Positions 7,822 through 52,059 of a DNA stretch of 64,000 bases are shown piece by piece. The notes beneath the pieces are model-generated. The model did no database searches. It had not been told where the DNA came from and saw only the letters and a program-made list of their open reading frames with translations. Each line of letters opens with the position of its first letter. Within the stretch, counting starts at the first letter, position 1. The position numbers were made by a program, and so were the translations under genes. This DNA comes from Candidatus Woesearchaeota archaeon. Its GTDB lineage: Archaea > Nanobdellota > Nanobdellia > Pacearchaeales > GW2011-AR1. The stretch covers positions 14,492 through 78,491 of the forward strand of contig CAYQJI010000001.1 in the NCBI GenBank assembly GCA_964417865.1, written 5' to 3'.

Positions 7822-7876
7822 TTTTCTAAACATTTATTAATCTTTTTTCTTTTTTATTCTTATATAAAGAGAGATC

Positions 7877-10051: not shown

Positions 10052-10100
10052 CTTTAGATTAATTAAATAAATTTATTAATTGGTTTTTATTTAATTTTTT

Positions 10101-10253: not shown

Positions 10254-10254
10254 A

Positions 10255-10380
10255 ATGGAAATAACATTTGAGCAAATTGTTAAGATTATTTTAGGCCTTT
10301 TGATAGTTGCTGCTATAGGTTTTGGAATCTATCTATCAAAAAATTATCTCTCCAGTTTTTTTAATAATCTCCCAACTTAA
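10255..10380 (+). CDS. small single-TM protein
   Basis: 41 aa, hydrophobic core IVKIILGLLIVAAIGFGIY, tightly packed after the previous small ORF. Confidence 0.2.
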   Translation: MEITFEQIVKIILGLLIVAAIGFGIYLSKNYLSSFFNNLPT

Positions 10381-10414
10381 AATAATAATTAAATAAAAGT
10401 AAATTTATCTTAAT

Positions 10415-10906: not shown

Positions 10907-11043
10907 ATTTCAATAATTTTATGGATTATTTTTATTGGATAGTGGTTTTTTTATTAGTTTTAGGAGGACTCTATTTTTTATTTAAATATCTAAATATATT
11001 TTAATATAATAAAAGATAAGTTATTTTAATTATAAAATAAAAA

Positions 11044-12126
11044 ATGAAAAGAAATAAATCAAAAATGAAAAAAGGAGAACTTACAACAGAGAACATTGTT
11101 ACTTTAATTGTTTTAATAATCGGATTTATAATTCTTTTGGCCTTTTTAGTTGGCTTTAATTATGAAGAGGAGGTTAATCAAATTGTTTGTAAAACTTCTG
11201 TTTTATTAAAAGCAACTTCTAAACAAATTTCAGGGTTAGAAAAATTATCTACTTCTTTAAATTGTCATACTAAATACCTTTGTATAAGTTCTGATAATAA
11301 ATGTGATAAGGACCTATCAATAAGTAATGTAAAAAAAGTTTCTTCTAGTGATGAAATATTTAAAATTCTGGCTGATGAACTTGGAAATTGTTGGTCTATG
11401 TTTGGGGAAGGCAAATTGGATTATTTTTCCAAATTTAATATAAAAACAGATCTTTATTGTTCTTTATGTTCTTTAATATATTTTGATAAAGATTTAAATG
11501 AAATTAAAGATGAAAATTCTTATTTTGTGAAAGATGAAAATGGGAAAGTTATTGGATTAAATCAAACAAAATTTTACATTTATTTAGCCAAAACAAAAGT
11601 TGGAAAAAGTAATGAAAATTATTTAACTTACCTTTATGGAATTTCTTCATTCTCTCAATTCAATAATTATCTAACAAATGGATTTATTCCAACAGAAAAT
11701 TCAAATATAGAATCACAAAAAAATTTAGAAGTTGAAAAATTGAATAATATTCCTTCTTTAGCTCCTCTAAACTTTTCAAAAAATTATTTTGTTCTATTAG
11801 GCGCTATGGACAATAGTGATCTCCTTAATATTCTTTCTACTTATGGAGGACCTGCCACTGGGTCTTTATTGGGTTTAGCTGCGGGTTTTATTATCTCACC
11901 ACCGTCTGCCATTATGTGGGGAGCACTTTTTGTAGGAGGAGCATTAATAGGACAAGGCGTGCAATCAACAAGTAATTTTTTAATTAATGATTTACTCTTT
12001 TCAAAAAAAAATCAAGAGACAAATAAAGAAGAGAGTAGTTTAGTTTTCTTTGGGCCTAATTTAGTGGAAGCTAATGCGAAATCATTAAGCAACATTAAAT
12101 GTTCTGAAATTAATACTATCGCTTAA
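11044..12126 (+). CDS. pilin-like protein (class III signal peptide), Cys-rich, with C-terminal hydrophobic anchor
   Basis: KMKKG/ELTTENIVTLIVLIIGFIILLAF, NCW motif, C-terminal TM (LLGLAAGFIISPPSAIMWGALFVGGALIG). Confidence 0.5.
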   Translation: MKRNKSKMKKGELTTENIVTLIVLIIGFIILLAFLVGFNYEEEVNQIVCKTSVLLKATSKQISGLEKLSTSLNCHTKYLCISSDNKCDKDLSISNVKKVSSSDEIFKILADELGNCWSMFGEGKLDYFSKFNIKTDLYCSLCSLIYFDKDLNEIKDENSYFVKDENGKVIGLNQTKFYIYLAKTKVGKSNENYLTYLYGISSFSQFNNYLTNGFIPTENSNIESQKNLEVEKLNNIPSLAPLNFSKNYFVLLGAMDNSDLLNILSTYGGPATGSLLGLAAGFIISPPSAIMWGALFVGGALIGQGVQSTSNFLINDLLFSKKNQETNKEESSLVFFGPNLVEANAKSLSNIKCSEINTIA

Positions 12127-12180
12127 TCTTTTTATCATTTATTAGTTAATTTTATAATATTCTTTTTCCATTTATTTAAT

Positions 12181-12642
12181 ATGATAAAAAATAAAAAAGG
12201 TGAAGGGAATGATTTATTTTTGAATAACTTTGTTGATATAATTTTAGATTTTATTTTTTTTGGAGTTCTTATACTCTTTTTATTAAATCAAAATTATAAA
12301 ATTTCTTTTTTAGAATTAAATTATGCTAAGAATATAGCTTTGTTAATAGATAATGCTAAACCTGGAATGACTATTACTTTTGATTTGTCTGATGCAGTAA
12401 AAATTGCTAAATCCAATGGTGTAGATATTAATGATATGATAAAAATTCAAGATAATAAAGTTTTAGTTACTCTTGCAAGGGGTAAATGGAGTTCTTATTC
12501 TTTTTTTAATAATATCAATATAGTTAGTTACTATCCTCTTTATAATACAAATAAAAAGGGTTATACAGGAGAATTTGTCTTTAAGATAGGAGAGTATATT
12601 GAAAATGAAGAGTTAAATCTTGAAAATGAAAAACTAAATTAA
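12181..12642 (+). CDS. pilin-like protein (class III signal peptide-like)
   Basis: KNKKG then hydrophobic helix FVDIILDFIFFGVLILFLL. Confidence 0.4.
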   Translation: MIKNKKGEGNDLFLNNFVDIILDFIFFGVLILFLLNQNYKISFLELNYAKNIALLIDNAKPGMTITFDLSDAVKIAKSNGVDINDMIKIQDNKVLVTLARGKWSSYSFFNNINIVSYYPLYNTNKKGYTGEFVFKIGEYIENEELNLENEKLN

Positions 12643-12654
12643 ATTAAAATAAAG

Positions 12655-13338
12655 ATGAAAATTTTTTTGATTAATAAAAAAAACAAAAGAGGAAATGTTT
12701 TTTCTATGTGGTGGTTTGTAATGGCAGTAATTGTCGCCGCAGTAATTTATATAATGGTTAATATGTTTTTTCAATCTCCCATAGATATTAGAGATATGGA
12801 GGTTAATAGTCTGATAAATCAGGTTGCAGATTGCATTTATTATGCTGGGCAATTTAACAATAATATTAATTTTATTTCTGAAAGTTCTTTAAGGCAAAAG
12901 GATATAAGTTCAGAAAATAAACTTATTAAAAATGAGCCAGAAATAGATAAAGAGTTCTTAATAAAAAATTGTCATTTAAATTTATTTGATGAAAATTATC
13001 CTAAAGAAAATCAGTATTTTATTCAAGTTAATATTTACAAATTGGACACAGCGTCAAATTCATTAAGTTATAAAGATAATCTTTTAGTAAATTATATTGC
13101 AGGAAATGAAATTTTTAAAGATTTTTGTGATTTACAATTACAAAAAAATTTTTATCCTTCATCTAATGTTTTAGAAGAAATTAAATACGAAGATAATATT
13201 TATAAGACTCTTCCATTCTGTAAAAATAAAAAATTTTATGCATTTACAAGGCAAATTATGGGGGATAATTCAAGAAATGAATATATTATAGAAATTATTG
13301 GAGGTATAAAAAAATTAAATGAGAATATTAAAGTATAA
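12655..13338 (+). CDS. pilin-like protein (class III signal peptide)
   Basis: KNKRG/NVFSMWWFVMAVIVAAVIYIMV. Confidence 0.5.
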   Translation: MKIFLINKKNKRGNVFSMWWFVMAVIVAAVIYIMVNMFFQSPIDIRDMEVNSLINQVADCIYYAGQFNNNINFISESSLRQKDISSENKLIKNEPEIDKEFLIKNCHLNLFDENYPKENQYFIQVNIYKLDTASNSLSYKDNLLVNYIAGNEIFKDFCDLQLQKNFYPSSNVLEEIKYEDNIYKTLPFCKNKKFYAFTRQIMGDNSRNEYIIEIIGGIKKLNENIKV

Positions 13339-13612
13339 AAAAGCTCAGATAGGGTATACTCTTAATTGGGGTGCAGCTTTAATATTAATTTTTATTATAT
13401 TATTAATATTTGTAATTGTTTCACTTTTATTTATTAATCATTCAAATTTAGTAAAATTTTTCGAACCAAAGAATACTCTAATAGAGGTTCAAAATCAACA
13501 TTTAATCTCAAAAAGTGAAATTTCTCTATCAGAAGTTACTTCAATGAATACAAAGGATTTTGATTCATATCATTCAAAAATTATAAATTTAATAAAATTA
13601 GAAAATGATTAA
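13319..13612 (+). CDS. small pilin-like protein
   Basis: KKAQIG then ALILIFIILLIFVIVSLLF. Shares the KKAQ(I/L)G leader with the next gene. Confidence 0.45.
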   Translation: MRILKYKKAQIGYTLNWGAALILIFIILLIFVIVSLLFINHSNLVKFFEPKNTLIEVQNQHLISKSEISLSEVTSMNTKDFDSYHSKIINLIKLEND

Positions 13613-14507
13613 AAATAAAAAAGCTCAATTAGGCATAAATATTTTTGTTTTAGGAACACTTATAGTTTGTGTTCTTGCTTTATTCAGTTTTAGCACTAAT
13701 TCTAATAAAGTTAAATTTAATTTTTATGGAATTTCTGCTTTAGAAGAAGAAAATACAAAAATTGAAAATGAACAATATCAACAATACTTAAAACTAAAAG
13801 AGAACATCCAAGAGTTTAAATGTTCTTATCAAGATTTATGCCAATGCCCTAAAGTAGATTCTCCTTATAATAAGTTAATTATCAACAATATGGATATTAA
13901 CGATTTAATAAGTAATGTTGACTGTTCAAATAAAGAACTTCTTAAAAATAATTTATTTAATTTAATGAAATCTATTTCAGATACTAATGCCGAGTATGTT
14001 GCAAGTCAATGTAAATGTAAAGATAATTGTAAAAATTATGCTGGACTTCTTGTTGATGAAGCTTGCAAAGATGATAATAACAAGATAGATCCTTATTTAT
14101 TATTGTCTATAATGATGCAAGAATCTGATTGTGTGGCCTTAGCTATAAATTCAAATAAAGAGAGTAATGGGAAAGTTTCTTCTTCTGACTGTGGTTTAAT
14201 GCAGATAAATACAAAAAGTCAAGAGGATTGTAAGGACCTTATTCAAAATCCAGCCTCTTCTATAAAAAGAGCAGTATCTCTTCTAAAAGATAAATTTGAT
14301 AAAGAATGCATTTTTACAGGGGGTAAATATAAAGATGGAGGCTTTACATGTGATGCTTCTACATTGATAATGCATTCTGATTGTACAAGAAGTGTTAAAT
14401 ATTCTGGTTGGGCTTCTAAAATAAGAGGTTATAATGGTTGGGGTGCAGGAGGTTCACCTTACTATACAGAACTTGTTTTAGAGAGATATTTAGAATTAAA
14501 AGGATAA
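13605..14507 (+). CDS. pilin-like protein fused to family-1 lytic transglycosylase (SLT/goose-lysozyme-like) domain
   Basis: KKAQLG + hydrophobic helix. SLT motifs: catalytic ES motif (SIMMQESDC...DCGLMQIN), NPASSIKRAVSLL, GYNGWGAG. Confidence 0.65.
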   Translation: MIKNKKAQLGINIFVLGTLIVCVLALFSFSTNSNKVKFNFYGISALEEENTKIENEQYQQYLKLKENIQEFKCSYQDLCQCPKVDSPYNKLIINNMDINDLISNVDCSNKELLKNNLFNLMKSISDTNAEYVASQCKCKDNCKNYAGLLVDEACKDDNNKIDPYLLLSIMMQESDCVALAINSNKESNGKVSSSDCGLMQINTKSQEDCKDLIQNPASSIKRAVSLLKDKFDKECIFTGGKYKDGGFTCDASTLIMHSDCTRSVKYSGWASKIRGYNGWGAGGSPYYTELVLERYLELKG

Positions 14508-14678
14508 AAAAATAAAATGACAGTTGAAGAAATTAAATCTTTTGCAAATAATATAAAAGTTGATTATAATTCTGAGTCAAATATATTATTAACAAATAAT
14601 AATCAAAAATAATTCTAAAAACCTTAAATAACTTCAAATTAACAAAAGCTTTTTAAATACTAAAAGATTATAAAAGAT

Positions 14679-15221
14679 ATGAAGTTAGAAAAAAAAATAA
14701 ACAAAAGAGGAGACCAAACACCTTGGATCTTAATCTCTTTGATTTTAGCACTTGCTGTTGGTGTATTTTTTATATATAACTTTTTTAGCTATAATCAATT
14801 ATTTTCTGCTTCAAATATTAATGATATAACTGATCTTTGTGTTAACACATATACAAAACCAGAAGAATTTGTTTCTAAAGGTTTACCTGCTTTTACAATA
14901 GAACAAGCAGGCAAAAAAATTGTTTATTCTAAAGGATTTACTTGTTATTATTTATCTAAACTAAGCACAAATAATCCAGCCTATAGTGCAGTTAGTGGAA
15001 GGAATAATTTAGATGAGATATGGCTCGCATGGGATGATAAAATTAAAATCATGGAGCCTAATAAAGATGAAACTTTCAGAAAAGAGGAGTGTGAGAAAGA
15101 TCCCAAGTTAATTTATGTTTATTCTGCAAAAGAAGAAAAAAATAAGTATACCTTAGAGGTTACAATATGTAACCCTGGGATAGCTCCTGCTCCTGCTGGA
15201 GGACATAATTCAGAAGAATAA
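14679..15221 (+). CDS. pilin-like Cys-rich protein (class III signal peptide)
   Basis: NKRG/DQTPWILISLILALAVGVFFIY, near-identical leader to 45258. Conserved GFTCYYLSKLSTNNP motif. Confidence 0.5.
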   Translation: MKLEKKINKRGDQTPWILISLILALAVGVFFIYNFFSYNQLFSASNINDITDLCVNTYTKPEEFVSKGLPAFTIEQAGKKIVYSKGFTCYYLSKLSTNNPAYSAVSGRNNLDEIWLAWDDKIKIMEPNKDETFRKEECEKDPKLIYVYSAKEEKNKYTLEVTICNPGIAPAPAGGHNSEE

Positions 15222-15358
15222 TTTTTCTCCATTCATTCTTTTTTAATAATCTTTTAAATTTATTATTTTTCTCTTTTATTATCATTAATTCTTTTTCTTA
15301 AATCTCTCTTTTTTTCTCTTATTTTAACAACTTTTTTAAATAACTAATTCTTTTTTAA

Positions 15359-16741
15359 TTGATGAAATCTTTAATGATAAAAGATAAAAGAGGTATGGAT
15401 ACAATGGCCTTTATTCTTGTTGCATTAATTCTTGCAGCAATAGTTCTTATTGCTTTGTCAGGAGGATTACAAATTGTTATAGGAAAATTAAAATCCGCTT
15501 TAGGAGGGCCTTCAAATGTGGATTTAATCAAAGGATTTTGTCAATTATCATGTAATCTCGGATTTACTAATGATTATTGTTATAAACCTAGAACATTAAC
15601 AGATAATTTAGGAAATAAACTTAATGATGTAACTTGCTATTTCCTTTCTAGATATAAGCCGAGTTATGAGATTGATTCTTGTCCTAAGATAACTTGCTCT
15701 GTTGAATTTAATAATAACATAAATTCCAAAGAGCAATTTAATCAATTACAATGCACAAAAAACAAATTATATTTACAATCTTTTATTCAAAATTCTGAAA
15801 AAGAATATACTTTGTTGTCAAAAGAATGTTCAAATTTCCTTGAAAAACCTCTAATAATTTCTAAAGATGAATTGAACCTTGATCCAACTCTTGAAAAATC
15901 TCTTAACAATTATATTTACTATTCTACAAATGCAGAATGGGTTGATAACTTTAATAAAGATTTACTTATCAATGCAATTAATGTTGCAACAGGAAAAAAA
16001 TCAAGCCAATTTTACCAAGATTTAGACCAGACTAATCCAGAAGCTGTAAAATTTTGTTATGAACCTATTAATTCATTAAATGGATTAACTGGATATGCTT
16101 ATTTAAAATCAAATTCAAAACTAATGAATAATGTTATTGATGCTTATCAAATTAATCAAAATGATTTTGAGCGTTGTGGCGTTTATTACTATTTTGTTGA
16201 TAAAACAAATGTAAGGTATGGAGGTCTATTATCTTATTACAAAACTTATAAATCTGCTGAAAATAGAGGGAGAGATTCCGATTCGTTTAAAGAGAATATA
16301 ATAAAACCTTTTGGTTGTATCAATAATGATTATAATAACTATCTCTCTCTTAGATATAATCAAAATGACCCAACAGGAAAGTATATCCAATTTTTAGATG
16401 AAAACAATAATCTTATTACTTTAGATTTTCCGTGTGAACCAGATATCTCAAGTTTTAAAGTAGACGAGGTCTGTAAAGCCTTTTATGATGAATTAGTTCA
16501 GAAATTTTCATTAGATCCTTATTTAGAGAATATTGAAACCTTTGATTTTTGTTCTAAAAAAATTAACCTTCTGGATTCCTCTGGAAATGAGATTTGTTCA
16601 GGATGTACCTGTTTTTATGTGCTTAATAATCTTAAAGAAGAAGATTTAACAAAAAGAGGTTATTTAAATGTCGCTAACAACGGAGTAACCATCTCAAATT
16701 TAGAGATTATAAAGTCTTGTAACCATGAATCTAAAACATAA
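15359..16741 (+). CDS. pilin-like Cys-rich protein (class III signal peptide), 460 aa
   Basis: KDKRG/MDTMAFILVALILAAIVLIAL, VTCYFLSRYKP motif shared with paralogs, more than 20 Cys. Confidence 0.5.
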   Translation: MMKSLMIKDKRGMDTMAFILVALILAAIVLIALSGGLQIVIGKLKSALGGPSNVDLIKGFCQLSCNLGFTNDYCYKPRTLTDNLGNKLNDVTCYFLSRYKPSYEIDSCPKITCSVEFNNNINSKEQFNQLQCTKNKLYLQSFIQNSEKEYTLLSKECSNFLEKPLIISKDELNLDPTLEKSLNNYIYYSTNAEWVDNFNKDLLINAINVATGKKSSQFYQDLDQTNPEAVKFCYEPINSLNGLTGYAYLKSNSKLMNNVIDAYQINQNDFERCGVYYYFVDKTNVRYGGLLSYYKTYKSAENRGRDSDSFKENIIKPFGCINNDYNNYLSLRYNQNDPTGKYIQFLDENNNLITLDFPCEPDISSFKVDEVCKAFYDELVQKFSLDPYLENIETFDFCSKKINLLDSSGNEICSGCTCFYVLNNLKEEDLTKRGYLNVANNGVTISNLEIIKSCNHESKT

Positions 16742-36950: not shown

Positions 36951-38840
36951 TTGATGATGTTTAAAGAGGGAAAAATTCATTTTTATTCAAGTAAAAAATT
37001 TTTTAAAAAAGGCCAATTAACAATCTTTATTATAGTTGCTTTATTAATTGTTTCTGGGGTTATTGTTTTCTTTTTATTTAGAAATAACATTATAAAAGAG
37101 AGTGTTCCTATAACAATTCAACCTGTTTATAACACTTTTGATTCTTGTATCCAGGATATTGGGAAAAAGGGGATATATCTATTAGAATCTCAAGGGGGTT
37201 ATATTTATCTTCCAGAATATCAAAAAGGTTCTTATAATTTCCCTTCTTCATCTTATCTAAACTTTATGGGCAATAATATCCCTTTTTGGGATTATTTTTC
37301 TTCTACTTCATTAGAAAAAAAGCAAATTCCTTCTAAAACCGATATGGAGGATCAATTAAAAAGGTTTATAGAATCCAATGTAAAAAATTGTGATTTTTCT
37401 ACAAATTATGCTCAAGGATTTGAGATTACACTTAAAGATTTTAGTGTTTCTCCTAAAATTTTAGATAATAAAATAACAATTGATTCTTCATTTAATATGA
37501 ATATTAGCTTAAATAACGAATCTTTTTCTATTAATCATTATAAAACAGATTTAACTTCTAATTTAGGAGTGTTATATGAAGATGCTCTAAAAGTTTATAG
37601 TCAAGAAGAGGAAACTCTTTTATTAGAGAATTATACGATTGATGTTTTAAGGCTTTATGCTCCTGTTGATGGTTTTGAGATATCATGCTCTCCAAAGGTT
37701 TGGAATATCAATAAAATCTATTATGATTTAAAAAACTCTCTTGAGCCAAATATACAATCAATAACCTCAGAAAAAAATAAAAATCCTAAACCTGAAAATA
37801 ATAAATACTTCTATAGAGATTTTAAAACACAAGGAAGTGTTAAATTTTTAACTTTTATGGATTGGCCAATGTTTTTAGAAGTTAACCCTTCTCAAGGAGA
37901 TTTACTCATTGCTAATCCTGTTGGAAATACCCCTGAACTAAGTATTTTAGGTTTTTGTTTTATTCCTTACCACTTTGTTTATTCTTTAAATTACCCTGTA
38001 CTTGTTCAAATTTCAAAGAATGATGAAACATTTCAATTCCCTCTTGTTGTCTATATAGATAAAAACAAACCAAAATCTGCTTTAACAAAAAAAACAGATT
38101 CTTCCTCTATTGATATTTGTTCTAACAAAGTTACCCCTATAACCCTAAATGTTCATGATACTTCAAATAATTTAATTCCTTTTAGTGTTAATTTTGAATG
38201 TATAAATGAGGATTGTTATATTGGAAATTCTTCTACAGGTAATTCTACATTTTTATTCCCAGAATGTGTGAATGGTGTTGTAAAAATAAATTCAAATAAT
38301 TTTCTTGAATCAAAAGTAGTATTAGACAATACTCTCCAAGAATCAGAACTAAATATCTATTTAACAAAAACTTATCCTATCGGTGTTCAAATTAATTTAG
38401 ATAACATGCCTTCTAATGAAGAAGCTTTAATCTCTTTTAATTTTAATGATTATTCAAAAACCCTTTTTTACCCTAAAGAAAAAATAATAAACCTTTCTGA
38501 AGGTGTTTATAATATTTCAGTAAAAGTTTATAAAAATTCTTCTTTAACTATCCCAGAAACAGAGACAGAGATATGTGTGCCTATAAAATCAGGAATAAAA
38601 GGTTTATTAGGAATATCTGAAAATAGTTGTTCAAAGATTAAAATTCCTAGTCAAATTATGTCCAATGTTCCTGTTGGGGGAGGGATAATCCGAGATTATG
38701 AGATTTCAGAATCACAATTAAAAAATTCAAGAATTATACAATTAAATGTTCAATCTTTAAAAACTCCAACTGACTTTTTAAGTATACAAAAAAATGTTTT
38801 GTTAACAGATGAAAATGAAATAGAGGTAAATTTAATATGA
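36951..38840 (+). CDS. pilin-like large extracellular protein (class III signal peptide KKGQ/LTIFIIVALLIV), 629 aa
   Basis: N-terminal positively charged stretch then hydrophobic helix. Overlaps the next gene by 4 bp (ATGA). Confidence 0.45.
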   Translation: MMMFKEGKIHFYSSKKFFKKGQLTIFIIVALLIVSGVIVFFLFRNNIIKESVPITIQPVYNTFDSCIQDIGKKGIYLLESQGGYIYLPEYQKGSYNFPSSSYLNFMGNNIPFWDYFSSTSLEKKQIPSKTDMEDQLKRFIESNVKNCDFSTNYAQGFEITLKDFSVSPKILDNKITIDSSFNMNISLNNESFSINHYKTDLTSNLGVLYEDALKVYSQEEETLLLENYTIDVLRLYAPVDGFEISCSPKVWNINKIYYDLKNSLEPNIQSITSEKNKNPKPENNKYFYRDFKTQGSVKFLTFMDWPMFLEVNPSQGDLLIANPVGNTPELSILGFCFIPYHFVYSLNYPVLVQISKNDETFQFPLVVYIDKNKPKSALTKKTDSSSIDICSNKVTPITLNVHDTSNNLIPFSVNFECINEDCYIGNSSTGNSTFLFPECVNGVVKINSNNFLESKVVLDNTLQESELNIYLTKTYPIGVQINLDNMPSNEEALISFNFNDYSKTLFYPKEKIINLSEGVYNISVKVYKNSSLTIPETETEICVPIKSGIKGLLGISENSCSKIKIPSQIMSNVPVGGGIIRDYEISESQLKNSRIIQLNVQSLKTPTDFLSIQKNVLLTDENEIEVNLI

Positions 38841-41800
38841 TAAAAAAAATAAACTATCTATTTTTGGTATTTTTCATTATTTTATTTTCTAATTTAGTCT
38901 TTTCAGCAACAATTTCAGATTTTTTTAAAACTCAAACAAAAGATAATTTGAACACAGAAAACTCTCCAATTTATCAATGTAATCAAGGAGAAGATTTTAT
39001 CGCATTTATTTCTCCTTTACAATGCTCCCCAGAAATTGTTAGAGATGATTTGCTTGAAGAAAATGATGTGCCGATTTATTGTAAAATTAATCTTTATAAA
39101 ATTAATCCTTTCGTTGATGTTTCTGGAATAAAAAGTGTATCTTTCTTAGGGAATCATTCTAAAGAAATAAGCAGTGTTTCTTATTACCCTGCATATTCTG
39201 CTTTAACAGGAGTTCAATCTAATTTAAAAAATCCAGGTTATATAAAAATTCTATTAAAAAAAGAACCAAATACCTCTAAGATTCCTGATTTTGTAGAGGG
39301 AAATCTTAGCGCAAAAATCTCTTATACCCTAAAAGATGAGGTGGGAATTCATGATTATTCTATTAATTTAAAAGAAATCTCCAACGATTATGAATGGGAT
39401 AATGTAAAGAATAAATATAGTTTTTGGAATAATAAGGGATATATAAGATTAGCAAATTTAGAAAACAATAAAGCAACTCTCTGGGTTTATGATTCAAAAG
39501 ATAGAAAAATATCCTCTTTGACTTTATCTAAAGGAGAAAATTCTAAAATAATATACTCTAATGATTTTGGATGCACTGGTTTACAAGTTAAACTACAAGA
39601 TTTAGAAAACCCTGAAACTAAAGCTCAAATTTCTATTAACTCTAATATTGTAGATTTAAAACAAAACGATAAGTTTCTTGATAACAAGTGTTCTATAATC
39701 TCTATTGATAAATACTCTGAAGTTGTTAAAATAAGATGCAACGAAGATAATGGTATAAAAGATTATTCTTTATTTAATTCTTATAAAGTTAATCTTTCTA
39801 TTGATGGAACAGAATACATCAAAGATATTGGAGATTTCCTTTTTTCAGCTGATAATAAGGATATTTATCTTGTTGGGATTAGTTCTGTATTATTAGATAA
39901 TAGCCCTCAAAATATTGTTTGGATTGGGGAGATACCTAAAGAAATTTCCAATTCTGCACAAAGTCTAAACAGTTATCAAATAACTGGTTTTTCTTCATTA
40001 ATCAGCCAAATAATCTCAGCTAATAATATTAAAAATGAAAATTCTTTCTCTTTAGAGAGTCTAACAAAAAGTTTTGGTGCTTTTTTATATGAAAGCTTTT
40101 TTTACAAGATAGGTTCTGGTCAACAAATTCATTTTTTAAAACAAAGAAAAGATTACACTATTTCAGGAAAAAAAATTGTATTTAATGGATTTGATACCCC
40201 CAAAGATGAAGAGCTTTTAGGAGAAATTAAAAATAATTATGAATTAGCAAAAGAAAATTACGAATCTGTAATAAAGGACTTTTCTTCTGAATCTCTTATT
40301 ACTAATAAAAATGAAAATGTTTATACAGGAGAAAGAGCCTTGTATCAAGAAATTATCTTATCTTATAATGTAAATCAAAAATTTACTGCATCCCAATTAT
40401 GCGAGAAGTTTTTCTCTAATTACCCTAATTCATTGTATATTCCTGAATTAAAAGAAAAATATTGTAATGAACTAAAATTATCTTCTTCTACAAATAGCGC
40501 ATTTGTTTCAATAAATCAAAACTTGTATAAAATCTCTTTAAATTATATTTCTGAACCTTCTTTTGAAGAGTATGGTGCAAGTTTCTTTGTAAATGATGGT
40601 TCTAATAGAGCTTCTTTTTCATTAAACAGAAATGGAATTTATGATTTAAACTCTTATAAAATTCCTTTATCAATAAGATTAAGTTCAATAGATAGTGACC
40701 CAAAGGGAAATTATGTTAATATTCAGATTAGTTCTTCAGATGAAAACCTTAAAAAACAGATTAGTCAAACAACTTACAAAATTTATAAGAATGATCAATT
40801 AAAAATAGGAAATTATTTTATTGTTGTTTCTAATATTAATTTAAAAAAAGAGGCTTTTGTTTCATTGGTTCCTTCAATTAGTTCTTCTTCGTCACAAGCA
40901 AATTTCAGTTTTAAGATAGGAATTGAAAAAAGGGCAATTAAATTAACTCCTGAACAAACTAAATCTCTTATAAAAAATGTAAATGAAAAAATTTCTCTAT
41001 TATCAGATATTTCTAATGGCTTAGAATCAGTTATTGAACCTTTAAAAGGAGCATGTTATCTTTCTACTGCAACTCTTTTAATAAAAAATTTCATTTCAGG
41101 TTCAACAAGCCAAGGTATGGCTAGACTTCTTGTTATGAAGGGTGTTGAAGGAAATTCTGGATGGTATACTAAATGTGAAAAAGAGATGAAAGAAAATCCT
41201 TCTAAATTTAGTTCATTAAATAGTTGTCTTTCTAATCATTCTTCAGAGATAGAAGAAGATGTTCAAAAGACCTCTAGTGTTATAGATAAGCTTAATAAAG
41301 AAATAAAAGACGAACAATCTCAAGATTCTTATCAATTATCAACAAAATCATCTCTGGGAATTCTAACAACTACAATAGACAAAGGAAAATTGAAAGATAA
41401 TTTCTTATTAAACAAAGATAAACTAAACAGAATTATTAATAATACAAGAGAAATAACTGATAATACAAAAGAAAATCTTAACAAATTATTAGAAAATCAA
41501 GAAGGTTTAAAAAAATCAATGAGCTTTGAACAAGCAAGAGATTTGAATTTATATTTAATGATTTTGAGTGAAACAGGTATTTCTGATAATTTAAAAGAAA
41601 TAGCAAATACAAAATTAGAATCTTTGATTAATGAAGTTTCTTTAACATCTGTATCTAATGAGCAAATTTTAAGTTTATCCTCTTATCTTGGAATTGATTA
41701 TAAAAAAATTGGAATTTTAAGTTCTGATTCTAAAGGAAATATCCCCTACTTAGGATTAGTATTAAAAGATTTAAGCAAATTGGATAGTAAGTTTTCATTA

Positions 41801-44800
41801 AATGAATTTTCTAATTCTCCTGTTTATTTATTTGAATATCTCAACAAAGAAAATAATAAAGATACCCTTTTCTACCTACTATTATTGGAAAAAAAGGGTA
41901 ATCTTTATACCCCTAAGAATAATAAAATTTTTAAAATAGATAAGACAAATAATGGGTTCAATGTTGTTGATACAGAGAGCTCACCTTTCCCTTTTAATAA
42001 CATTCAATTTATAAGTTCAAGTTTCTCCAATAAATATCAAAATCCTGAATTAAAATATTATGATTCTAGTAATTCTGATAAATTACCTTCAGTTGTTCCT
42101 ATTGATACAGCAAATGGATGGTATGCTGGAATAGAACCTCTTGTTTATGGAAATAAAGATGCGATTTTAGATTCTGGAAGAATTAATATTTTTTATTTAT
42201 GTAATGTTGGAATAGATGGAAAAGAAGAATTTTCTCTTAGGAACTCTCAATCAACTGATGATCTCTGTCAAATGATTGATTTGGGAATTTCTGAAAGTTA
42301 TAAATACATTATGGGTTTGTCAGAAACAGAATCAGTAAGATTAACTACAAAAGCAATTAGTGCAATACAACAAGCACAAAAAGCATCTAACCAAGCAGAG
42401 GGTTCTAGCGTTAAAATACTAGATCAAGTATTTAAAGTAGGAAAATCCCAAGTAGATACCAATTCATTTAGATGTGAAGACTTTATGCCTCATCAAGATT
42501 GTTTAACAATATTTAATCTTTGTGACCCTGTAATATGTCCTTCAAGTAGATGTGATTTTGGAGGAAAATATAAAGTGGATAATGTTGTGCAATCTGGAAT
42601 TTTAGGTAGTATAATGCTTTGTTTACCTAACGCTAAAGAAGGAATTCTCTTCCCTATTTGTTTAACCGGAATTAAAGCAGGAGTTGATTCATTAAATTCT
42701 GTATTAAAATCTTATAGTGATTGTTTAAATATAAGCTTACAAAATGGACAAACAGTAGGTGTTTGTGATGAAATTAATAGTTTTTATATATGTGACTTTG
42801 TTTGGAGACAAGTTTCTCCTATCTTGAACTTAGGAATTCCTACAATAGTTGAATCTTTATTAAACAAAGGGAGAGGTGGTGGAGAATATATTAATGTTCA
42901 AGCTTCATGGGAACTTACTAAATCTGCTGCAGATTATTTTGTTAATTCTTATGGGCAAAATTCTAAAAAAGCTTTTCTTTTGAGAAGTTCTGAAAATATT
43001 GGAGGAGAAGTTTGTAAACTTTATACTTCTTTTACTACTCAAGATCTTTCTGGTGTTGTAAAAAGTTTATTAAAATCAGATTCTCCTGCACAATTCACAG
43101 GAAGATTTGATGAAATACCTTTAACAACAGTCACAGAACATCCAACATCCCATTATAAAGTATATTATCATATTTATGCAGGAACAGATAGTGGTGCAAA
43201 TTATAAAGTTTATCTTAGAAACAAAGAAACTTATTATCAAGATACTTCAACAGCATTAGTTGTTGATAGTGGTTATGTGCCTAATGGAAATTACTATTCT
43301 CAAACTAAAGATATAATTGGGAATTCAGGATATAATGAGCTGTGTATATCAGTTAATAATCAAGAAGTATGTGGTTTTAAAGAAGCTTCTACTTCTATGA
43401 CAATTAATCTTTTGTCTGATGAATATGTTAAATCTATTTCTACAAAAAATGATATAAAAACAGAGGCACAATGTGCAGGAGGAATAAATCAAGGAATAGT
43501 AAGAATCTGTTCTTCTAAAAGTCCTGGAGAAGGTATTGATGCTTATTATAATACTGAAAATGCTAGATGGAAACAAGTAGGGGTTTGTGGTAATGAAAAT
43601 ATGAAATGTTGGCTTGATACAAATAGTGTTAAAGATGCTATTGTGTCTAAGAGTGTTGAAGAATCAACTGTTCAATCTTTAGAAGATTCTTATAAATCCC
43701 TTATTAATACTGAAGGAGAATTAACTGAAGATCAATTGAATGAATTTTTTGAAGAATTAAGTCAAGAAAAAGATATTAATTCAAAAATAAATAGAATTTC
43801 AAACATCTTAGACAAGGTTTATAATAGCAAATATAAAGCAAATTTAATAATATTAAGAGGAGATCTTTATAATGAGCTTTTAATTTCATTAATAAGATCT
43901 AATCAAAATATTGGTAACATTAATTTAAAAACAAAAGATAGTTCAATTTCTCAAACCGATTTAAATTCTCAAAATTCAAATTCTCCTTCTTTAACTCCAA
44001 CAGAGGTGGATTCTTCTGAAGATTATAGATCTCCTGTTTTTTCCTTAAATGCTTTAATTGTTAGTGGCGAAGAGAAAGTTAATAACTCTTTATCTTTTTT
44101 TAAGGATAAATCTAGTTCATCTTTTTCTAATGCAAAAGAAGCTGTTTTAGAAATTTATGAAGATGAAAAAGTTTCACCTTACTGTTATTATACTGAACCA
44201 GATAAGAAAAATTATAAAAATATTAATAATGAATTTCAAAAATCTTTTTCTGTATATACATCAGATGCTAAAACAGCGCTTTTTTATGTTGATAAAGAAA
44301 ATTGTCTTTTAAACCCAGACGATATTAATGTTCTTTCAGATCAAAATAAGAAATTAAACTTATTACAAAAAGGAGATATAATTTCTTATGTTAAAGATGG
44401 TTCTTCTTCAAATAGTGTCATTTTTATAGAATGGATTAATCAAAAGAACTATATTGCAAAAGTATTGGATTGGAATGGTGGGAATATATTAACAGGAAGA
44501 AAATATCAAGAAATTGAAGTTAATCTTTCTGATAATTCTCATCCTGTTTATATGATAATAAAACCTATTCCAAAAGATGACTTTTCAAATCTACCTCCTG
44601 TTGATTCTTTAAGAGATTATTTTAAAAACGAAATTTATGCAATAAAACTTTCAAGTGAAGGTGAAGGACCTATTACCTCTTTTGATATAACATATACAGA
44701 AGCTAGTTCTTTATCTTCCGCTAGAAGTGAGTTAATAAATAAAATATCTTCTTGGATTGGAAAACAAGCTCCTAGTGATGTAACAAACTGTTGGAAAGCT

Positions 44801-45217
44801 GTACAAAAAATATATTCTTCTGCAGGATTTAATTATGAATGTATTTATTCTGATCCAGTAGGAAAAACTTATGAAAAAGTTACTAAACTTGTTACAGGAA
44901 CAACAAACAAAGATATTCTTCAAGTAAATCCTACTAGATGTTGCAAGAATAATAAATGTGATGAAGAACAAAAGTTAAATCTCTTAAATCCTGGAGATAT
45001 AATCTCTTATGTATATAATGAAAAAATAGGGCATAATGCCATTTTTATAGAGTGGTTTGATAAAGAAAAGGGAATAGCTAAATTATTTGATTGGAATGAT
45101 GTTAGGGATAACACCCATTATTACAGGTATTATAAATTGGTTACATTGAAAGATGATTCTCATCCTGTTTATATGATTTGGAAACCTGTTAAATCTTGGT
45201 CTTCTTCTTCAACTTAA
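38837..45217 (+). CDS. giant secreted Cys-rich surface protein (2126 aa) with two C-terminal papain/NlpC-P60-like modules
   Basis: Sec signal peptide. Cys clusters. C-terminal repeats with TNCWKAVQKIY...GDIISYV...GHNAIFIEW...DWN (Cys/His/Asn-Asp order). The first repeat lacks the Cys and His. Confidence 0.6.
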   Translation: MIKKINYLFLVFFIILFSNLVFSATISDFFKTQTKDNLNTENSPIYQCNQGEDFIAFISPLQCSPEIVRDDLLEENDVPIYCKINLYKINPFVDVSGIKSVSFLGNHSKEISSVSYYPAYSALTGVQSNLKNPGYIKILLKKEPNTSKIPDFVEGNLSAKISYTLKDEVGIHDYSINLKEISNDYEWDNVKNKYSFWNNKGYIRLANLENNKATLWVYDSKDRKISSLTLSKGENSKIIYSNDFGCTGLQVKLQDLENPETKAQISINSNIVDLKQNDKFLDNKCSIISIDKYSEVVKIRCNEDNGIKDYSLFNSYKVNLSIDGTEYIKDIGDFLFSADNKDIYLVGISSVLLDNSPQNIVWIGEIPKEISNSAQSLNSYQITGFSSLISQIISANNIKNENSFSLESLTKSFGAFLYESFFYKIGSGQQIHFLKQRKDYTISGKKIVFNGFDTPKDEELLGEIKNNYELAKENYESVIKDFSSESLITNKNENVYTGERALYQEIILSYNVNQKFTASQLCEKFFSNYPNSLYIPELKEKYCNELKLSSSTNSAFVSINQNLYKISLNYISEPSFEEYGASFFVNDGSNRASFSLNRNGIYDLNSYKIPLSIRLSSIDSDPKGNYVNIQISSSDENLKKQISQTTYKIYKNDQLKIGNYFIVVSNINLKKEAFVSLVPSISSSSSQANFSFKIGIEKRAIKLTPEQTKSLIKNVNEKISLLSDISNGLESVIEPLKGACYLSTATLLIKNFISGSTSQGMARLLVMKGVEGNSGWYTKCEKEMKENPSKFSSLNSCLSNHSSEIEEDVQKTSSVIDKLNKEIKDEQSQDSYQLSTKSSLGILTTTIDKGKLKDNFLLNKDKLNRIINNTREITDNTKENLNKLLENQEGLKKSMSFEQARDLNLYLMILSETGISDNLKEIANTKLESLINEVSLTSVSNEQILSLSSYLGIDYKKIGILSSDSKGNIPYLGLVLKDLSKLDSKFSLNEFSNSPVYLFEYLNKENNKDTLFYLLLLEKKGNLYTPKNNKIFKIDKTNNGFNVVDTESSPFPFNNIQFISSSFSNKYQNPELKYYDSSNSDKLPSVVPIDTANGWYAGIEPLVYGNKDAILDSGRINIFYLCNVGIDGKEEFSLRNSQSTDDLCQMIDLGISESYKYIMGLSETESVRLTTKAISAIQQAQKASNQAEGSSVKILDQVFKVGKSQVDTNSFRCEDFMPHQDCLTIFNLCDPVICPSSRCDFGGKYKVDNVVQSGILGSIMLCLPNAKEGILFPICLTGIKAGVDSLNSVLKSYSDCLNISLQNGQTVGVCDEINSFYICDFVWRQVSPILNLGIPTIVESLLNKGRGGGEYINVQASWELTKSAADYFVNSYGQNSKKAFLLRSSENIGGEVCKLYTSFTTQDLSGVVKSLLKSDSPAQFTGRFDEIPLTTVTEHPTSHYKVYYHIYAGTDSGANYKVYLRNKETYYQDTSTALVVDSGYVPNGNYYSQTKDIIGNSGYNELCISVNNQEVCGFKEASTSMTINLLSDEYVKSISTKNDIKTEAQCAGGINQGIVRICSSKSPGEGIDAYYNTENARWKQVGVCGNENMKCWLDTNSVKDAIVSKSVEESTVQSLEDSYKSLINTEGELTEDQLNEFFEELSQEKDINSKINRISNILDKVYNSKYKANLIILRGDLYNELLISLIRSNQNIGNINLKTKDSSISQTDLNSQNSNSPSLTPTEVDSSEDYRSPVFSLNALIVSGEEKVNNSLSFFKDKSSSSFSNAKEAVLEIYEDEKVSPYCYYTEPDKKNYKNINNEFQKSFSVYTSDAKTALFYVDKENCLLNPDDINVLSDQNKKLNLLQKGDIISYVKDGSSSNSVIFIEWINQKNYIAKVLDWNGGNILTGRKYQEIEVNLSDNSHPVYMIIKPIPKDDFSNLPPVDSLRDYFKNEIYAIKLSSEGEGPITSFDITYTEASSLSSARSELINKISSWIGKQAPSDVTNCWKAVQKIYSSAGFNYECIYSDPVGKTYEKVTKLVTGTTNKDILQVNPTRCCKNNKCDEEQKLNLLNPGDIISYVYNEKIGHNAIFIEWFDKEKGIAKLFDWNDVRDNTHYYRYYKLVTLKDDSHPVYMIWKPVKSWSSSST

Positions 45218-49163: not shown

Positions 49164-49254
49164 AATAATCCTTCTTAAATTAATAATAAAATTAAGAATA
49201 AATAAAAAACAAAAATAGAAAGATTTTAAAGATAATTTCCTCTTGTTTTTATAT

Positions 49255-49329
49255 GCCTCGGTAGCTCAGCCTGGATAGAGCATTAGCCTTCTAAGCTAAG
49301 GGTCGCAGGTTCAAATCCTGTCCGGGGCG
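49255..49329 (+). tRNA. tRNA-Arg (UCU)
   Basis: Acceptor GCCUCGG/CCGGGGC, anticodon loop CUUCUAA, T-loop UUCAAAU, G73. Confidence 0.85.
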
Positions 49330-49336
49330 TTTTATT

Positions 49337-50218
49337 ATGGATAAAAAAAGAAATAACAATCTGAAATTCCCCTTAAAAGGAAAATATATAGCCCTTGTTG
49401 CTCCGAGTTTTATTGTTGATTTTCCTTATCCTAAAATATTATTTCAATTGAAAGAACTCGGTTTTGATAAAGCTGTTGAATTAACATTTGGAGCAAAACT
49501 TGTTAATAGAGAGTATTATAAGGAGATTAAAAATTCAAAAAAATTGATGATTTCAAGTGTTTGTGCAGGTATTGTTGAAACAATAAAAAATTCTTTTCCT
49601 GAATATAAAAATAATCTTTTACTTGTAGATAGTCCAATGATAGCAACTGCTAAAATCTGTAAAAAAATATACCCTTATCATAAAAGAGTTTTTATTTCTC
49701 CTTGTAATTTTAAAAAATTAGAAGCTGAAAGAACAGGGCTTATTGATTATGTTATTAACTATAAAGAGTTAAAAAATCTTATTTTTGAATATTATTCTAA
49801 ACATACAAAAAGTAAAAAAAATAAATTCTATAAAAAGGAGATATTCTTTGACAAATTTTATAATGATTATACTAAAATATATCCCATACCTGGAGGATTA
49901 TCTAAAACATTAAAAGTAAAAAAACTTTTACAAAAAAATGAAATAAAAGAAATTGATGGGATAAAAAAAATTATTAAATTCCTTAAAAATCCTAATCCAA
50001 AAATAAAATTTTTAGATATAACTTTTTGTAAAGGCGGGTGTATTGGTGGTCCATTTATTAATTCCAAAATTCCAATATCTTTTAGAAAAAGAAAAGTTTT
50101 AAAATATTTAAGAAAAGCAGATAAAGAAAAAATTCCTGAAAATAGAAAAGGGATATTTAAAAAAGCAGAAGGTTTATCATTTAAATCAAATTACTCAATT
50201 AATATTTATAACCCCTAA
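49337..50218 (+). CDS. [FeFe]-hydrogenase H-cluster-domain-like protein (Fe_hyd_lg_C family; minimal, Nar1/HydA-like)
   Basis: GFDKAVELTFGAKL. L1-like SSVCAGI...YPE...SPMIATAKI, L2-like ISPCNFKKLEA (MPCxxKxxEA), L3-like FCKGGCIGGP (MACPGGCxxGG). Confidence 0.5.
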   Translation: MDKKRNNNLKFPLKGKYIALVAPSFIVDFPYPKILFQLKELGFDKAVELTFGAKLVNREYYKEIKNSKKLMISSVCAGIVETIKNSFPEYKNNLLLVDSPMIATAKICKKIYPYHKRVFISPCNFKKLEAERTGLIDYVINYKELKNLIFEYYSKHTKSKKNKFYKKEIFFDKFYNDYTKIYPIPGGLSKTLKVKKLLQKNEIKEIDGIKKIIKFLKNPNPKIKFLDITFCKGGCIGGPFINSKIPISFRKRKVLKYLRKADKEKIPENRKGIFKKAEGLSFKSNYSINIYNP

Positions 50219-50323
50219 TTTTTTATCCTATAATCTCTTTGAGATTTTTGAATTTTATCCCCTTGTTTTTTGTTTCATTTTTTATCAATAATTTTATATA
50301 TACTCTTAATTTAATTCCTTTAT

Positions 50324-50395
50324 GCGGAGGTGGCACAACGGCACTGCGTTCGCCTGCAGAGCGAATTTGTGTGGGTTCGACTCCCACCCTCCGCT
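50324..50395 (+). tRNA. tRNA-Cys (GCA)
   Basis: Acceptor GCGGAGG/CCUCCGC, anticodon loop CUGCAGA, T-loop UUCGACU, U73. Confidence 0.85.
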
Positions 50396-50403
50396 TGAGT
50401 GTT

Positions 50404-52059
50404 ATGGCATTTATTATAACAAAGACAATAAATGGTAAAAAATACTATTATCTAAATAAAAGTGAGAGAGTGGGAGATAAGATCAAAACAAAATATCTTG
50501 CTTACCTTGGAAAAAATAAAGAACAAGCAGAATTAAAAGCTAAAATCTTCTTCCAAAAAATAGAAGAATTAAAAAACAAAGAAGATAATCATAAAAGTAT
50601 GGATTCAGAGAAAAAAATATCTATTGAAGAACTTTCAAACTTTTGTAAATCTAAAGGGTTTGTTTTTAAAAGTTCTGAAATCTATGGTGGAATTTCTGGT
50701 TTTTGGGATTTCGGTCCACTCGGTGTAGAGTTATTTAACAATATAAAACAAAATTGGTGGAATTTTTTTGTAAAACAAAAAGAAAATATTGTGGGTTTGG
50801 ATGCAAGTATTATCTCTCATCCTCAAACTTGGAAAGCTTCTGGTCATTTGACTAATTTTAATGATATAGCAGTTATATGTAAAAAATGTAAAAAATCAAC
50901 TAAAATAGACAAATCTGAAATTGGAAAAGTTAAATGTTCATGTGGTGGAGAGTATGAAGTTTTAGGTGAATTTAATTTAATGTTTAAAACAAAGATAGGA
51001 GCTTTAAATGCAGAAGAAGCTTATCTTAGAGGAGAAACTGCTCAAGGAATGTTTTTAGATTTTAAACTTATTCAACAAACGTCAAGAATGCAATTGCCTT
51101 TTGGTATAGCTCAGATAGGAACTTGTTTTAGAAATGAAATTGCTCCAAGAGACTTTTTATTTAGAAGTAGAGAATTTCATATAGGAGAATTTGAATTCTT
51201 TATAAACCCTGAAGAAAAAAAATGTGATTTATTAGATAATCCTCATTTAAATACAGAATTTAATTTTCTTGATGAAGAAACTCAAAAAGAAGGAAAAACA
51301 AATTTAAAAAAAGTTAAAATAAAAAACCTTTTAGAAGAGGGGAAATTAGAAGAATGGCATGCTTATTGGTTAGCTGAACAAATAATATGGTTAAACTCTT
51401 TAGGTCTTTATGAAATAAAGGTAAGAGAACATACAAAAGAAGAATTAAGTCATTATAGCTCTGCAACATTTGATATAGATTATGAATACCCGTTTGGATC
51501 AAAAGAATTGGGAGGAATTGCAAATAGGGGACAATACGATTTAACAAATCATCAAAAAGAGAGTAAACAAAATTTAGAAATCTTTGATGAGAAATATAAA
51601 AATAAAGTTATTCCTAAGGTCATAGAACCTACCTTTGGAATGGAAAGGATTTTTCTTGCAATTTTAACTAAGGCTTATACTTATGACAAAAAAAGAGAGA
51701 ATGTTATCTTAAAAATTCCTCCTTTTTTATCCCCTATAAAAGCGGCTATATTCCCTATTGTAAAAAAAGAAGAATTTGAAAATTTGAGTAGGGAGATTTT
51801 TAATGATCTAAAAAAAGAATGGTTTGTTAGTTATGATGTTTCTGGAAGCATTGGTAGAAGATATTCCAGAAATGATGAAATTGGAACACCTTATTGTATT
51901 ACTGTTGATGGGGATTCTATAAAAAATAAAGATGTTACTATAAGAGATAGGGACACTACTAAACAGATTAGGGTTAAGATTAAAGATTTAAAAGATACAT
52001 TAAAAAAACTTATTAATCAGGAGATTGATTTTGAGAAAGTAGGTAAATTAGTAGATTAA
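50404..52059 (+). CDS. glyS: glycyl-tRNA synthetase, archaeal/eukaryotic type, with about 90-aa N-terminal extension
   Basis: FVFKSSEIYGGISGFWDFGPLG, class II motifs. Start moved to Met-56 of the tracked ORF because the first 55 codons overlap tRNA-Cys. Confidence 0.85.
   Translation: MAFIITKTINGKKYYYLNKSERVGDKIKTKYLAYLGKNKEQAELKAKIFFQKIEELKNKEDNHKSMDSEKKISIEELSNFCKSKGFVFKSSEIYGGISGFWDFGPLGVELFNNIKQNWWNFFVKQKENIVGLDASIISHPQTWKASGHLTNFNDIAVICKKCKKSTKIDKSEIGKVKCSCGGEYEVLGEFNLMFKTKIGALNAEEAYLRGETAQGMFLDFKLIQQTSRMQLPFGIAQIGTCFRNEIAPRDFLFRSREFHIGEFEFFINPEEKKCDLLDNPHLNTEFNFLDEETQKEGKTNLKKVKIKNLLEEGKLEEWHAYWLAEQIIWLNSLGLYEIKVREHTKEELSHYSSATFDIDYEYPFGSKELGGIANRGQYDLTNHQKESKQNLEIFDEKYKNKVIPKVIEPTFGMERIFLAILTKAYTYDKKRENVILKIPPFLSPIKAAIFPIVKKEEFENLSREIFNDLKKEWFVSYDVSGSIGRRYSRNDEIGTPYCITVDGDSIKNKDVTIRDRDTTKQIRVKIKDLKDTLKKLINQEIDFEKVGKLVD

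Follow-up and report, generated by a model that had tools for sequence, protein, structure and literature searches.

A probable group E ultraminimal [FeFe] hydrogenase gene set among tRNA and housekeeping genes of a DPANN archaeon

A 293-residue protein consisting of the H-domain

Within a 64-kb stretch of archaeal DNA (64,000 nucleotides; the window), an open reading frame directly behind a tRNA gene raises the question of what a hydrogenase-like protein is doing among genes of translation and transcription. A first-pass annotation, made by eye from the sequence, had compared its product with the H-cluster domain of [FeFe] hydrogenases and had left two readings side by side, a Nar1/NARF-like Fe-S protein or a stripped-down hydrogenase. 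We asked which of these the gene encodes, to which hydrogenase group it would belong, and what role its surroundings suggest. The gene and the tRNA gene in front of it are as follows:

49337..50218, + strand: hydA, probable group E ultraminimal [FeFe] hydrogenase; open reading frame from ATG to TAA, 293 aa, H-domain only
49254..49330, + strand: tRNA-Arg(TCT), found by ARAGORN; ends 6 nt before the hydA ATG

The 293-aa protein matches the Pfam model PF02906 (Fe_hyd_lg_C) with E=1.1e-36; its 127 bits, where the cut-off is 22.1, are far beyond chance, and residues 17-239 correspond to profile positions 3-245 of 245, covering the full profile. The first-pass annotation had staked its reading on such a match and on at least three aligned ligand cysteines; there are the match and, as described below, four. 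No second domain besides PF02906 was found in the protein by the Pfam search. It has only five cysteines, the first at residue 76, with none upstream of that residue or past residue 235, and this low total excludes accessory clusters and an F-cluster domain, bearing out the earlier description of an H-domain that lacks the N-terminal F-cluster domains. A C-terminal tail of ~55 residues follows the L3 motif. The best NCBIfam match is to the C-terminal half of TIGR04105, a model of the monomeric group B type (124.9 bits), with the group A models at ~50 bits (50.2 bits for TIGR02512); because the hydA protein is without N-terminal domains, the full-length cut-offs are reached by none of the models.

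An AF2 model built with 30 relatives as input has a pLDDT of 76.8 and a pTM of 0.80; confidence is moderate overall and poor around residues 160-183, with pLDDT below 50 at 176-183. All 50 of the listed Foldseek matches of this model in the PDB are HydA chains, the catalytic subunits of [FeFe] hydrogenases, with query-normalized TM-scores of 0.59-0.67, identities of 16-24%, and E values down to 8e-12. Among known enzymes, Clostridium pasteurianum CpI (group A, M3 type) has the same H-domain fold (query-normalized TM-score ~0.65, 21-24% identity), and we used it as the reference for individual residues.

H-cluster ligands and active-site positions across the family

More than 1000 clusters at 90% identity match the hydA protein at E<=1e-5; the best 120 of these are all 275-314 aa long with PF02906 only, and the named members among those 120 are Woese-, Pace- or Nanoarchaeota. 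With this many matches, and with group E of DPANN archaea described in 2024, the remark in the first-pass annotation that such proteins are unusual in archaea is outdated. An HMMER search, exhaustive over 1.84 billion representatives, gave 33 clusters at 50% identity with E<=1e-30; its listing runs through short proteins to ~35-40% identity and then passes to proteins of 550-750 aa, in which the H-domain begins near residue 70-80. This layout of the nearest non-minimal relatives suggests groups C/D. In GTDB species-representative genomes, 174 matching stretches encode a relative of hydA, and all 80 of the loci that were fetched contain an open reading frame of 260-310 aa. An orthologue with 87% identity lies in the same gene order in a Woesearchaeota genome. 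Conservation is reported below for a set of 81 sequences spanning 50-100% identity.

The sequence blocks quoted in the first-pass annotation are all present in the translation, with GFDKAVELTFGA at residues 42-53, the L1 block ISSVCAGI at residues 72-79, the L2 block ISPCNFKKLEA at residues 120-130, and the L3 block FCKGGCIGGP inside residues 225-239. The motifs and active-site segments are:

49400..49408, + strand: A22-P23-S24, candidate for lining the [2Fe] subsite, judged by its motif and by coverage of the Pfam profile
49550..49573, + strand: L1 motif ISSVCAGI, holding C76 and V75
49631..49639, + strand: S99-P100-M101, aligned with CpI S323-P324-Q325, by the [2Fe] subsite
49694..49726, + strand: L2 motif ISPCNFKKLEA, holding C123, K126, and S121
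49847..49900, + strand: motif FDKFYNDYTKIYP, followed by GGL, holding Y182 and L188
50009..50053, + strand: L3 motif FLDITFCKGGCIGGP, holding C231, C235, T229, and D227

A residue-by-residue phmmer alignment with CpI, from which the CpI numbers were counted, gives these equivalences:

C76 with CpI C300, cluster ligand ([4Fe-4S]H)
C123 with CpI C355, cluster ligand
C231 with CpI C499, cluster ligand (domain 2 of the alignment)
C235 with CpI C503, cluster ligand and bridge to [2Fe] (domain 2 of the alignment)
V75 with CpI C299, position of the proton-relay Cys
K126 with CpI K358, lining the [2Fe] pocket
S99-P100 with CpI S323-P324, lining the [2Fe] pocket
S121 with CpI M353, second sphere
T229 with CpI M497, second sphere
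D227 with CpI E495, acidic residue near the cluster
L95 with CpI S319, proton pathway
E63 with CpI R286, proton pathway

All four H-cluster cysteines align with those of CpI and the proton-transfer cysteine is absent, its place in L1 being taken by Val; the single cysteine where hydrogenases have a CC doublet had been read correctly from the sequence. In the same phmmer alignment CpI E279 and E282 fall opposite a gap in the hydA protein, and a family profile aligned with CpI 410-425 pairs Y182 with F417 and L188 with V423. The query has thus kept the four cluster cysteines, K358, and S323-P324 of CpI, with Tyr for F417, whereas the four accessory clusters and the C299/E279/S319/E282/R286 relay of CpI are missing or replaced. 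The triplet A22-P23-S24 is the probable counterpart of CpI A230-P231-S232 at the [2Fe] subsite, an equivalence taken from the motif and the profile coverage, since the residue-level profile alignment begins at CpI 245; P23 and S24 are invariant in the alignment of the closest relatives.

The four ligand cysteines, K126, S99-P100, E129, and D227 are invariant in all 81 sequences. At the C299 position the family has Val (42 sequences), Pro (15), Thr (14), or Ala (10) and never Cys, and none of the more distant short homologues has a Cys there. Position 121 is Ser, Ala, or Thr, position 229 is Leu, Thr, or Asn, and position 188 is Leu in 80 of the 81. The residue after the L1 cysteine is usually Pro; the query is one of five sequences in the set with Ala.

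With the relay cysteine missing, two other proton routes were considered and rejected. The position of the group D relay Glu, E252 of the TamHydS pair E252/E289, would be that of L188 if E252 is equated with CpI V423, a mapping drawn from a T/S-G-G-V/E pattern rather than from the TamHydS sequence; with Leu at this position the group D relay was set aside. Solely the E289 equivalent is acidic, as D227 in 81 of 81 sequences, and on this alignment no other known relay position is occupied by a conserved acidic residue. C108, the fifth cysteine, was weighed for two roles, relaying protons in place of the missing cysteine or serving as an additional ligand. All 30 of the closest sequences have it; both roles were rejected because it is kept in just 75 of 81 in the wider set and is Met, Leu, Val, or Ile in distant short homologues, and it resembles a buried hydrophobic position.

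Placement among the [FeFe] hydrogenases

Group E, the 'ultraminimal' [FeFe] hydrogenases, was defined by Greening et al. (Cell 2024, PMC11216029) for monomeric enzymes consisting only of the H-domain, with a mean of 286 residues, encoded by DPANN archaea (Nanoarchaeota, Micrarchaeota, and Iainarchaeota); they keep the ligand cysteines and differ in their proton-transfer residues, and the sensory group C is their sister group. The group E enzyme of 'Ca. Forterrea multitransposorum' (Fm) contained 4.2 Fe per protein and, with synthetic [2Fe]adt, gave H-cluster FTIR bands and evolved H2 with a bias to proton reduction, and the group E enzyme of CABMGN01 (CABMGN01 sp902385635) was modeled in the same study (PMC11216029).

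We regard it as likely that the hydA product is a monomeric, single-domain group E ultraminimal [FeFe] hydrogenase of a Woesearchaeota/Nanoarchaeota-type DPANN archaeon. Over residues 4-283 it is 54% identical (E=6e-96) to the CABMGN01 gene (locus L043, contig CABMGN010000008.1), and the two loci have the order RNase Z / tRNA-Arg / hydA / tRNA-Cys in common; on this identity and shared gene order the protein is filed in group E. The CABMGN01 gene is the group E reference throughout, the assayed Fm enzyme lying outside both this comparison and the 80 loci. A rough neighbor-joining tree places the query in a 17-protein clade whose members, L043 among them, are no longer than 320 aa. Among the HMMER-listed relatives, FDxFYNDYTKIYP occurs in most of the closer short proteins and in none of the long ones, and the full FDKFYNDYTKIYP motif is confined to proteins of <=352 aa.

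Further attributes of group E are present as well. The protein is of the expected length at 293 aa, has all four ligand cysteines (as do 81 of 81 relatives), and carries proton-transfer residues unlike those of group A (V75, L95, and E63). The archaeal housekeeping genes of the ~26% GC window fit a DPANN host, and the neighbors of hydA (RNase Z, tRNA-Arg, tRNA-Cys, and GlyRS) fit a monomeric enzyme working without HydB/HydC; a NuoE/NuoF-like gene is absent from the Pfam listings of the window and from the 20 neighbor clusters seen most often across the 80 loci, six of them with Pfam annotation. From the Fm and CABMGN01 enzymes, which likewise have a single [4Fe-4S] cluster plus a [2Fe] site, no partner subunits, and a DPANN host, the query protein shows no difference of kind; relative to the usual group E protein it has Ala for Pro after the L1 cysteine and extends a few residues further at its C-terminus.

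HydA1 of Chlamydomonas reinhardtii also consists of the H-domain only, without F-clusters, and accepts electrons directly from ferredoxin. It differs from the query in its TSCCP motif, its full proton pathway, its dependence on HydEFG, and its ~160 additional residues, and phmmer finds only a weak match between the two (E ~0.01). The L1 motif TSCCP with its relay Cys, typical of group A, is ISSVCAGI in the query. At 457 residues this group A enzyme was formerly the smallest characterized [FeFe] hydrogenase (PMC11216029).

Two of the rival readings turn on this placement. A Nar1/NARF orthologue, that is, a eukaryotic-type cytosolic Fe-S assembly factor, would share with the query an H-domain-like fold, four C-terminal-type cluster cysteines, and an L1 without the CC doublet. 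Proteins of this family differ, however, in being eukaryotic, in having an N-terminal 4-Cys cluster domain, and in lacking a di-iron subsite, which the group E enzyme, unlike Nar1/NARF, binds in vitro. The query has no N-terminal ferredoxin-like 4-Cys motif, its H-domain beginning at residue 17; its genomic context is archaeal and its close relatives are all from DPANN genomes and of the same length, which does not fit membership in the eukaryotic CIA machinery; and the HMM scores favor group B-type over group A-type models (TIGR04105 at 124.9 versus TIGR02512 at 50.2 bits). Nar1 is generally placed in group A. With affinities to groups B/C, no N-terminal Cys motif, and an archaeal host, we reject this reading, to which we attach next to no probability; of the two possibilities in the first-pass annotation, the hydrogenase stands and Nar1/NARF falls.

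A role in sensing or taking up H2, akin to that of the group C/D HydS proteins and in place of fermentative H2 production, also strikes us as very unlikely, although several likenesses speak for it. Groups C/D, to which TmHydS and TamHydS belong, appear to hold the closest non-minimal relatives. Both enzymes are without the C299 cysteine, having Ala there, and TamHydS has Ser in place of M353 (PMC10407848, PMC11803613). Both M353 and M497 are replaced in groups C/D and in the query alike, position 75 being V/P/T/A across the query's family, and the changes C299 to V, M353 to S (as S191 of TamHydS), and M497 to T resemble those in slow, putatively sensory groups C/D. The nearest non-minimal relatives of 550-750 aa, with an H-domain from residue 70-80, have a group C/D-like layout, and group E is sister to group C (PMC11216029). 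On the other side, groups C/D have N-terminal F-clusters and C-terminal cluster/PAS domains in proteins of 550-750 aa, an H2-oxidation bias or a need for overpotential, and, in group D, a Glu relay. The query has neither the N-terminal 2[4Fe-4S] nor the C-terminal cluster/PAS arrangement of HydS: it carries no PAS, extra-cluster, or signaling domain and ends ~55 residues past L3. No regulatory partner genes lie nearby, Fm is biased to H+ reduction, unlike TmHydS, and the inferred position of the group D relay Glu (E252) is L188 in the query and Leu in 80 of 81 sequences.

Gene context, maturation, and proposed role

The gene order at this locus is TFB, S8e, LSm, RNase Z, tRNA-Arg(TCT), hydA, tRNA-Cys(GCA), GlyRS, an unknown gene, S17e, tRNA-splicing endonuclease, AlaRS, and TFE; in the Pfam listing, which covers most of the window, the rest consists of housekeeping and pilus-like genes. 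The genes of this ~26% GC window include TFB, TFE, LSm, S8e, S17e, EndA, RadA, aIF2-alpha, and GINS. A TATA-like TTTTAAAG lies ~26 nt upstream of the tRNA-Arg gene, which probably provides hydA with its promoter and a 5' processing site; tRNA-Arg(TCT) is upstream of hydA in 22 of the 80 related loci. The window holds no redox partners, the neighbors being translation and transcription genes: tblastn found no 2-oxoacid:ferredoxin oxidoreductase (OFOR) in it, and its six frames contain no ferredoxin CxxCxxCxxxC motif.

Across the 80 loci the hydA family has two contexts, which are mutually exclusive. About 35 loci resemble the present one in having the RNase Z / tRNA block. Another ~34 have OFOR alpha (POR + POR_N) and beta (TPP_enzyme_C + PFO_beta_C) genes upstream; OFOR lies within four genes of hydA in 29 of the 80, adjoining it in 17, and is nearly always on the same strand. 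OFOR genes adjoining hydA were also noted in PMC11216029. At one locus (L037) a 60-aa 2[4Fe-4S] ferredoxin is encoded directly 3' of hydA. In about half of the lineages, then, hydA is embedded in a housekeeping block flanked by tRNA genes, away from redox genes. At two loci (L065 and L070) a TIGR04084 SPASM protein adjoins hydA, an arrangement that is not conserved.

The first-pass annotation had seen no maturase genes in the window, and closer searches agree for HydE and HydG: no real open reading frame in the six frames of the 64-kb window has a radical-SAM CxxxCxxC motif, and the Pfam listing of a further 10 kb of the contig gives housekeeping genes (GatDE, AspRS, and Fic among them) and no radical-SAM family. 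By motif and Pfam, neither HydE nor HydG was found in the window or the additional 10 kb. The flanks of the 80 related loci contain eight open reading frames of at least 250 aa with a radical-SAM motif; these were rejected as HydE or HydG, no match being obtained for any of them. Of the three maturases, these searches cover HydE and HydG, in the window, the 10 kb, and the flanks. A full HydEFG set was reported for five of 130 hydrogenase-encoding archaeal genomes, and an alternative maturation route was proposed (PMC11216029), so the failure to find HydE and HydG here agrees with what was already known of the family. H2 producers without HydEFG are reported in Giardia, Entamoeba, and 'Ca. P. 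syntrophicum', and the published Fm activity was obtained with a synthetic cofactor (PMC11216029). That neither HydE nor HydG turned up, and that Fm was active with a synthetic cofactor, count against the hydrogenase reading, as do the active-site substitutions resembling those of groups C/D and the window's lack of redox partners. We speculate, with low confidence, that either the subsite is made by an undiscovered non-HydEFG route, or the protein of the tRNA-flanked lineage carries the [4Fe-4S] cluster only and has a non-hydrogenase function.

The failure to find HydE and HydG and the housekeeping context keep in play the rival that the protein is, in vivo, a small [4Fe-4S]-only Fe-S redox or trafficking protein, Nar1-like in its working without being an orthologue, with any hydrogenase activity latent. 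HydE and HydG were not found near the 80 loci or in the window, the full maturase set is present in just 5 of 130 archaeal genomes (PMC11216029), ~35 of the 80 loci, including this one, have hydA amid RNase Z, LSm, S8e, TFB, and tRNAs instead of redox genes, and no member of the family has the proton-relay Cys. We nevertheless judge this reading improbable. The di-iron pocket residues K126, S99-P100, and Y182 are invariant in 81 sequences down to 50% identity, and a protein with the [4Fe-4S] cluster alone would have no evident use for them; Fm incorporates [2Fe]adt into a well-defined environment and shows turnover (PMC11216029); the link to OFOR in ~34 of 80 loci fits ferredoxin reoxidation; and H2 producers lacking HydEFG, such as Giardia, Entamoeba, and 'Ca. 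P. syntrophicum', are already on record.

For the preferred reading, a group E hydrogenase, we propose the following scheme. The fold, the ligands, the pocket residues, the gene context, and the family membership are shown for the hydA protein. C76, C123, C231, and C235 would hold the [4Fe-4S] part of the H-cluster, with C235 bridging to the di-iron subsite, and K126, S99-P100, Y182, and probably P23-S24 would line the di-iron pocket. By analogy with Fm, we infer that the protein binds an H-cluster and evolves H2. Reduced ferredoxin, itself reduced by 2-oxoacid:ferredoxin oxidoreductase, would donate electrons directly to the surface-exposed [4Fe-4S]H, and protons would be reduced to H2 as a means of disposing of fermentative reductant. 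Because the canonical relay (CpI C299, E279, S319, E282, and R286) is absent and the inferred group D Glu position is Leu, protons would have to arrive by some other route, probably by direct solvent or water access to the exposed active site.

The query is one more ordinary representative of a family that a 2024 paper described, and because the family, its activity, and its absent maturases were all part of that publication, it brings nothing new in principle. What the present comparison adds is that the relay position is never Cys across the family, that the two gene contexts of hydA exclude each other, and that the flanking tRNAs are conserved. The archaeon probably uses the smallest known type of hydrogenase to get rid of fermentative reductant in the form of H2, which is relevant to the reconstruction of metabolism in a genome-reduced DPANN archaeon and to the supply of H2 to its neighbors.

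Gene contexts of the group E hydrogenases

Group E hydA, the gene for the H-domain-only, ultraminimal [FeFe] hydrogenase, lies in two syntenic contexts among the 80 related loci fetched from species-representative genomes, and these are mutually exclusive. About 34 of the 80 have genes for the alpha and beta subunits of a 2-oxoacid:ferredoxin oxidoreductase (OFOR) upstream of hydA, and about 35 have the RNase Z gene and tRNA genes around it; in none of the 80 do the OFOR and RNase Z/tRNA contexts occur together within 10 kb. A gene for an EamA-family transporter is the downstream neighbor in 18 of the 80. Three loci (L037, L065, and L070) have other genes directly downstream of hydA:

L065, 6277-7416, - strand, TIGR04084-family radical SAM/SPASM gene, convergent with hydA
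L070, 10843-11976, - strand, TIGR04084-family radical SAM/SPASM gene, convergent with hydA
L037, 10834-11016, - strand, gene for a 60-aa 2[4Fe-4S] ferredoxin

Found in two loci and one locus, respectively, neither the TIGR04084 gene nor the ferredoxin gene is conserved family-wide across the 80, and none of the eight long open reading frames with a radical SAM motif in the flanks of these loci codes for the maturases HydE or HydG.

tRNA genes flanking hydA and a predicted co-transcript

In the window, hydA is closely bracketed by two tRNA genes:

49254-49330, tRNA-Arg(TCT), ending 6 nt ahead of the hydA ATG
50324-50395, tRNA-Cys(GCA), ending 8 nt ahead of the GlyRS ATG

Flanking by tRNA-Arg, tRNA-Cys, or both recurs in 28 of the 80 related loci, including that of CABMGN01, the genome with the reference group E enzyme. 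Across these 80 loci tRNA-Arg is seen near hydA in both orientations: 12 copies are on the + strand, most of them 2-23 nt away from the start codon, and ten are on the - strand, most of them ~52 nt away. In the window, tRNA-Arg lies close to the ATG, a TATA-like box precedes the tRNA by ~26 nt, and the gene for RNase Z comes shortly before the tRNA-Arg/hydA pair. This arrangement suggests that the tRNA and hydA mRNA are made as one co-transcript, which is processed to a near-leaderless hydA mRNA.

The listed GlyRS reading frame (50239-52059; 606 aa, TTG start) overlaps tRNA-Cys, as does the 603-aa version annotated in one public record; another record of identical sequence starts GlyRS at the ATG at 50404 (551 aa), which is most likely the true start.

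Other genes in the window

A 2126-aa open reading frame (38837-45217, + strand) has no Pfam family on record, nor does the 628-aa frame before it. At a guess, the 2126-aa product may be a giant surface protein; such proteins are common among DPANN archaea. A same-strand run at 5479-16741 (+) resembles a gene cluster of the pilus or secretion type: its first reading frame encodes a T2SSE-type secretion/pilus ATPase (780 aa), an SLT lytic transglycosylase domain is also encoded in it, and most of its remaining reading frames lack a Pfam match.

A motif conserved in the close family

One segment of the hydA protein recurs among its relatives:

49847-49885, + strand, FDKFYNDYTKIYP, residues 171-183

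The motif is nearly invariant across the close family. Of the more distant relatives, the closer short proteins mostly share it, and none of those listed that exceed 352 aa has it in full. AlphaFold2 pLDDT is <50 at these residues. Candidate roles are a lid over the di-iron site or docking of an electron donor.
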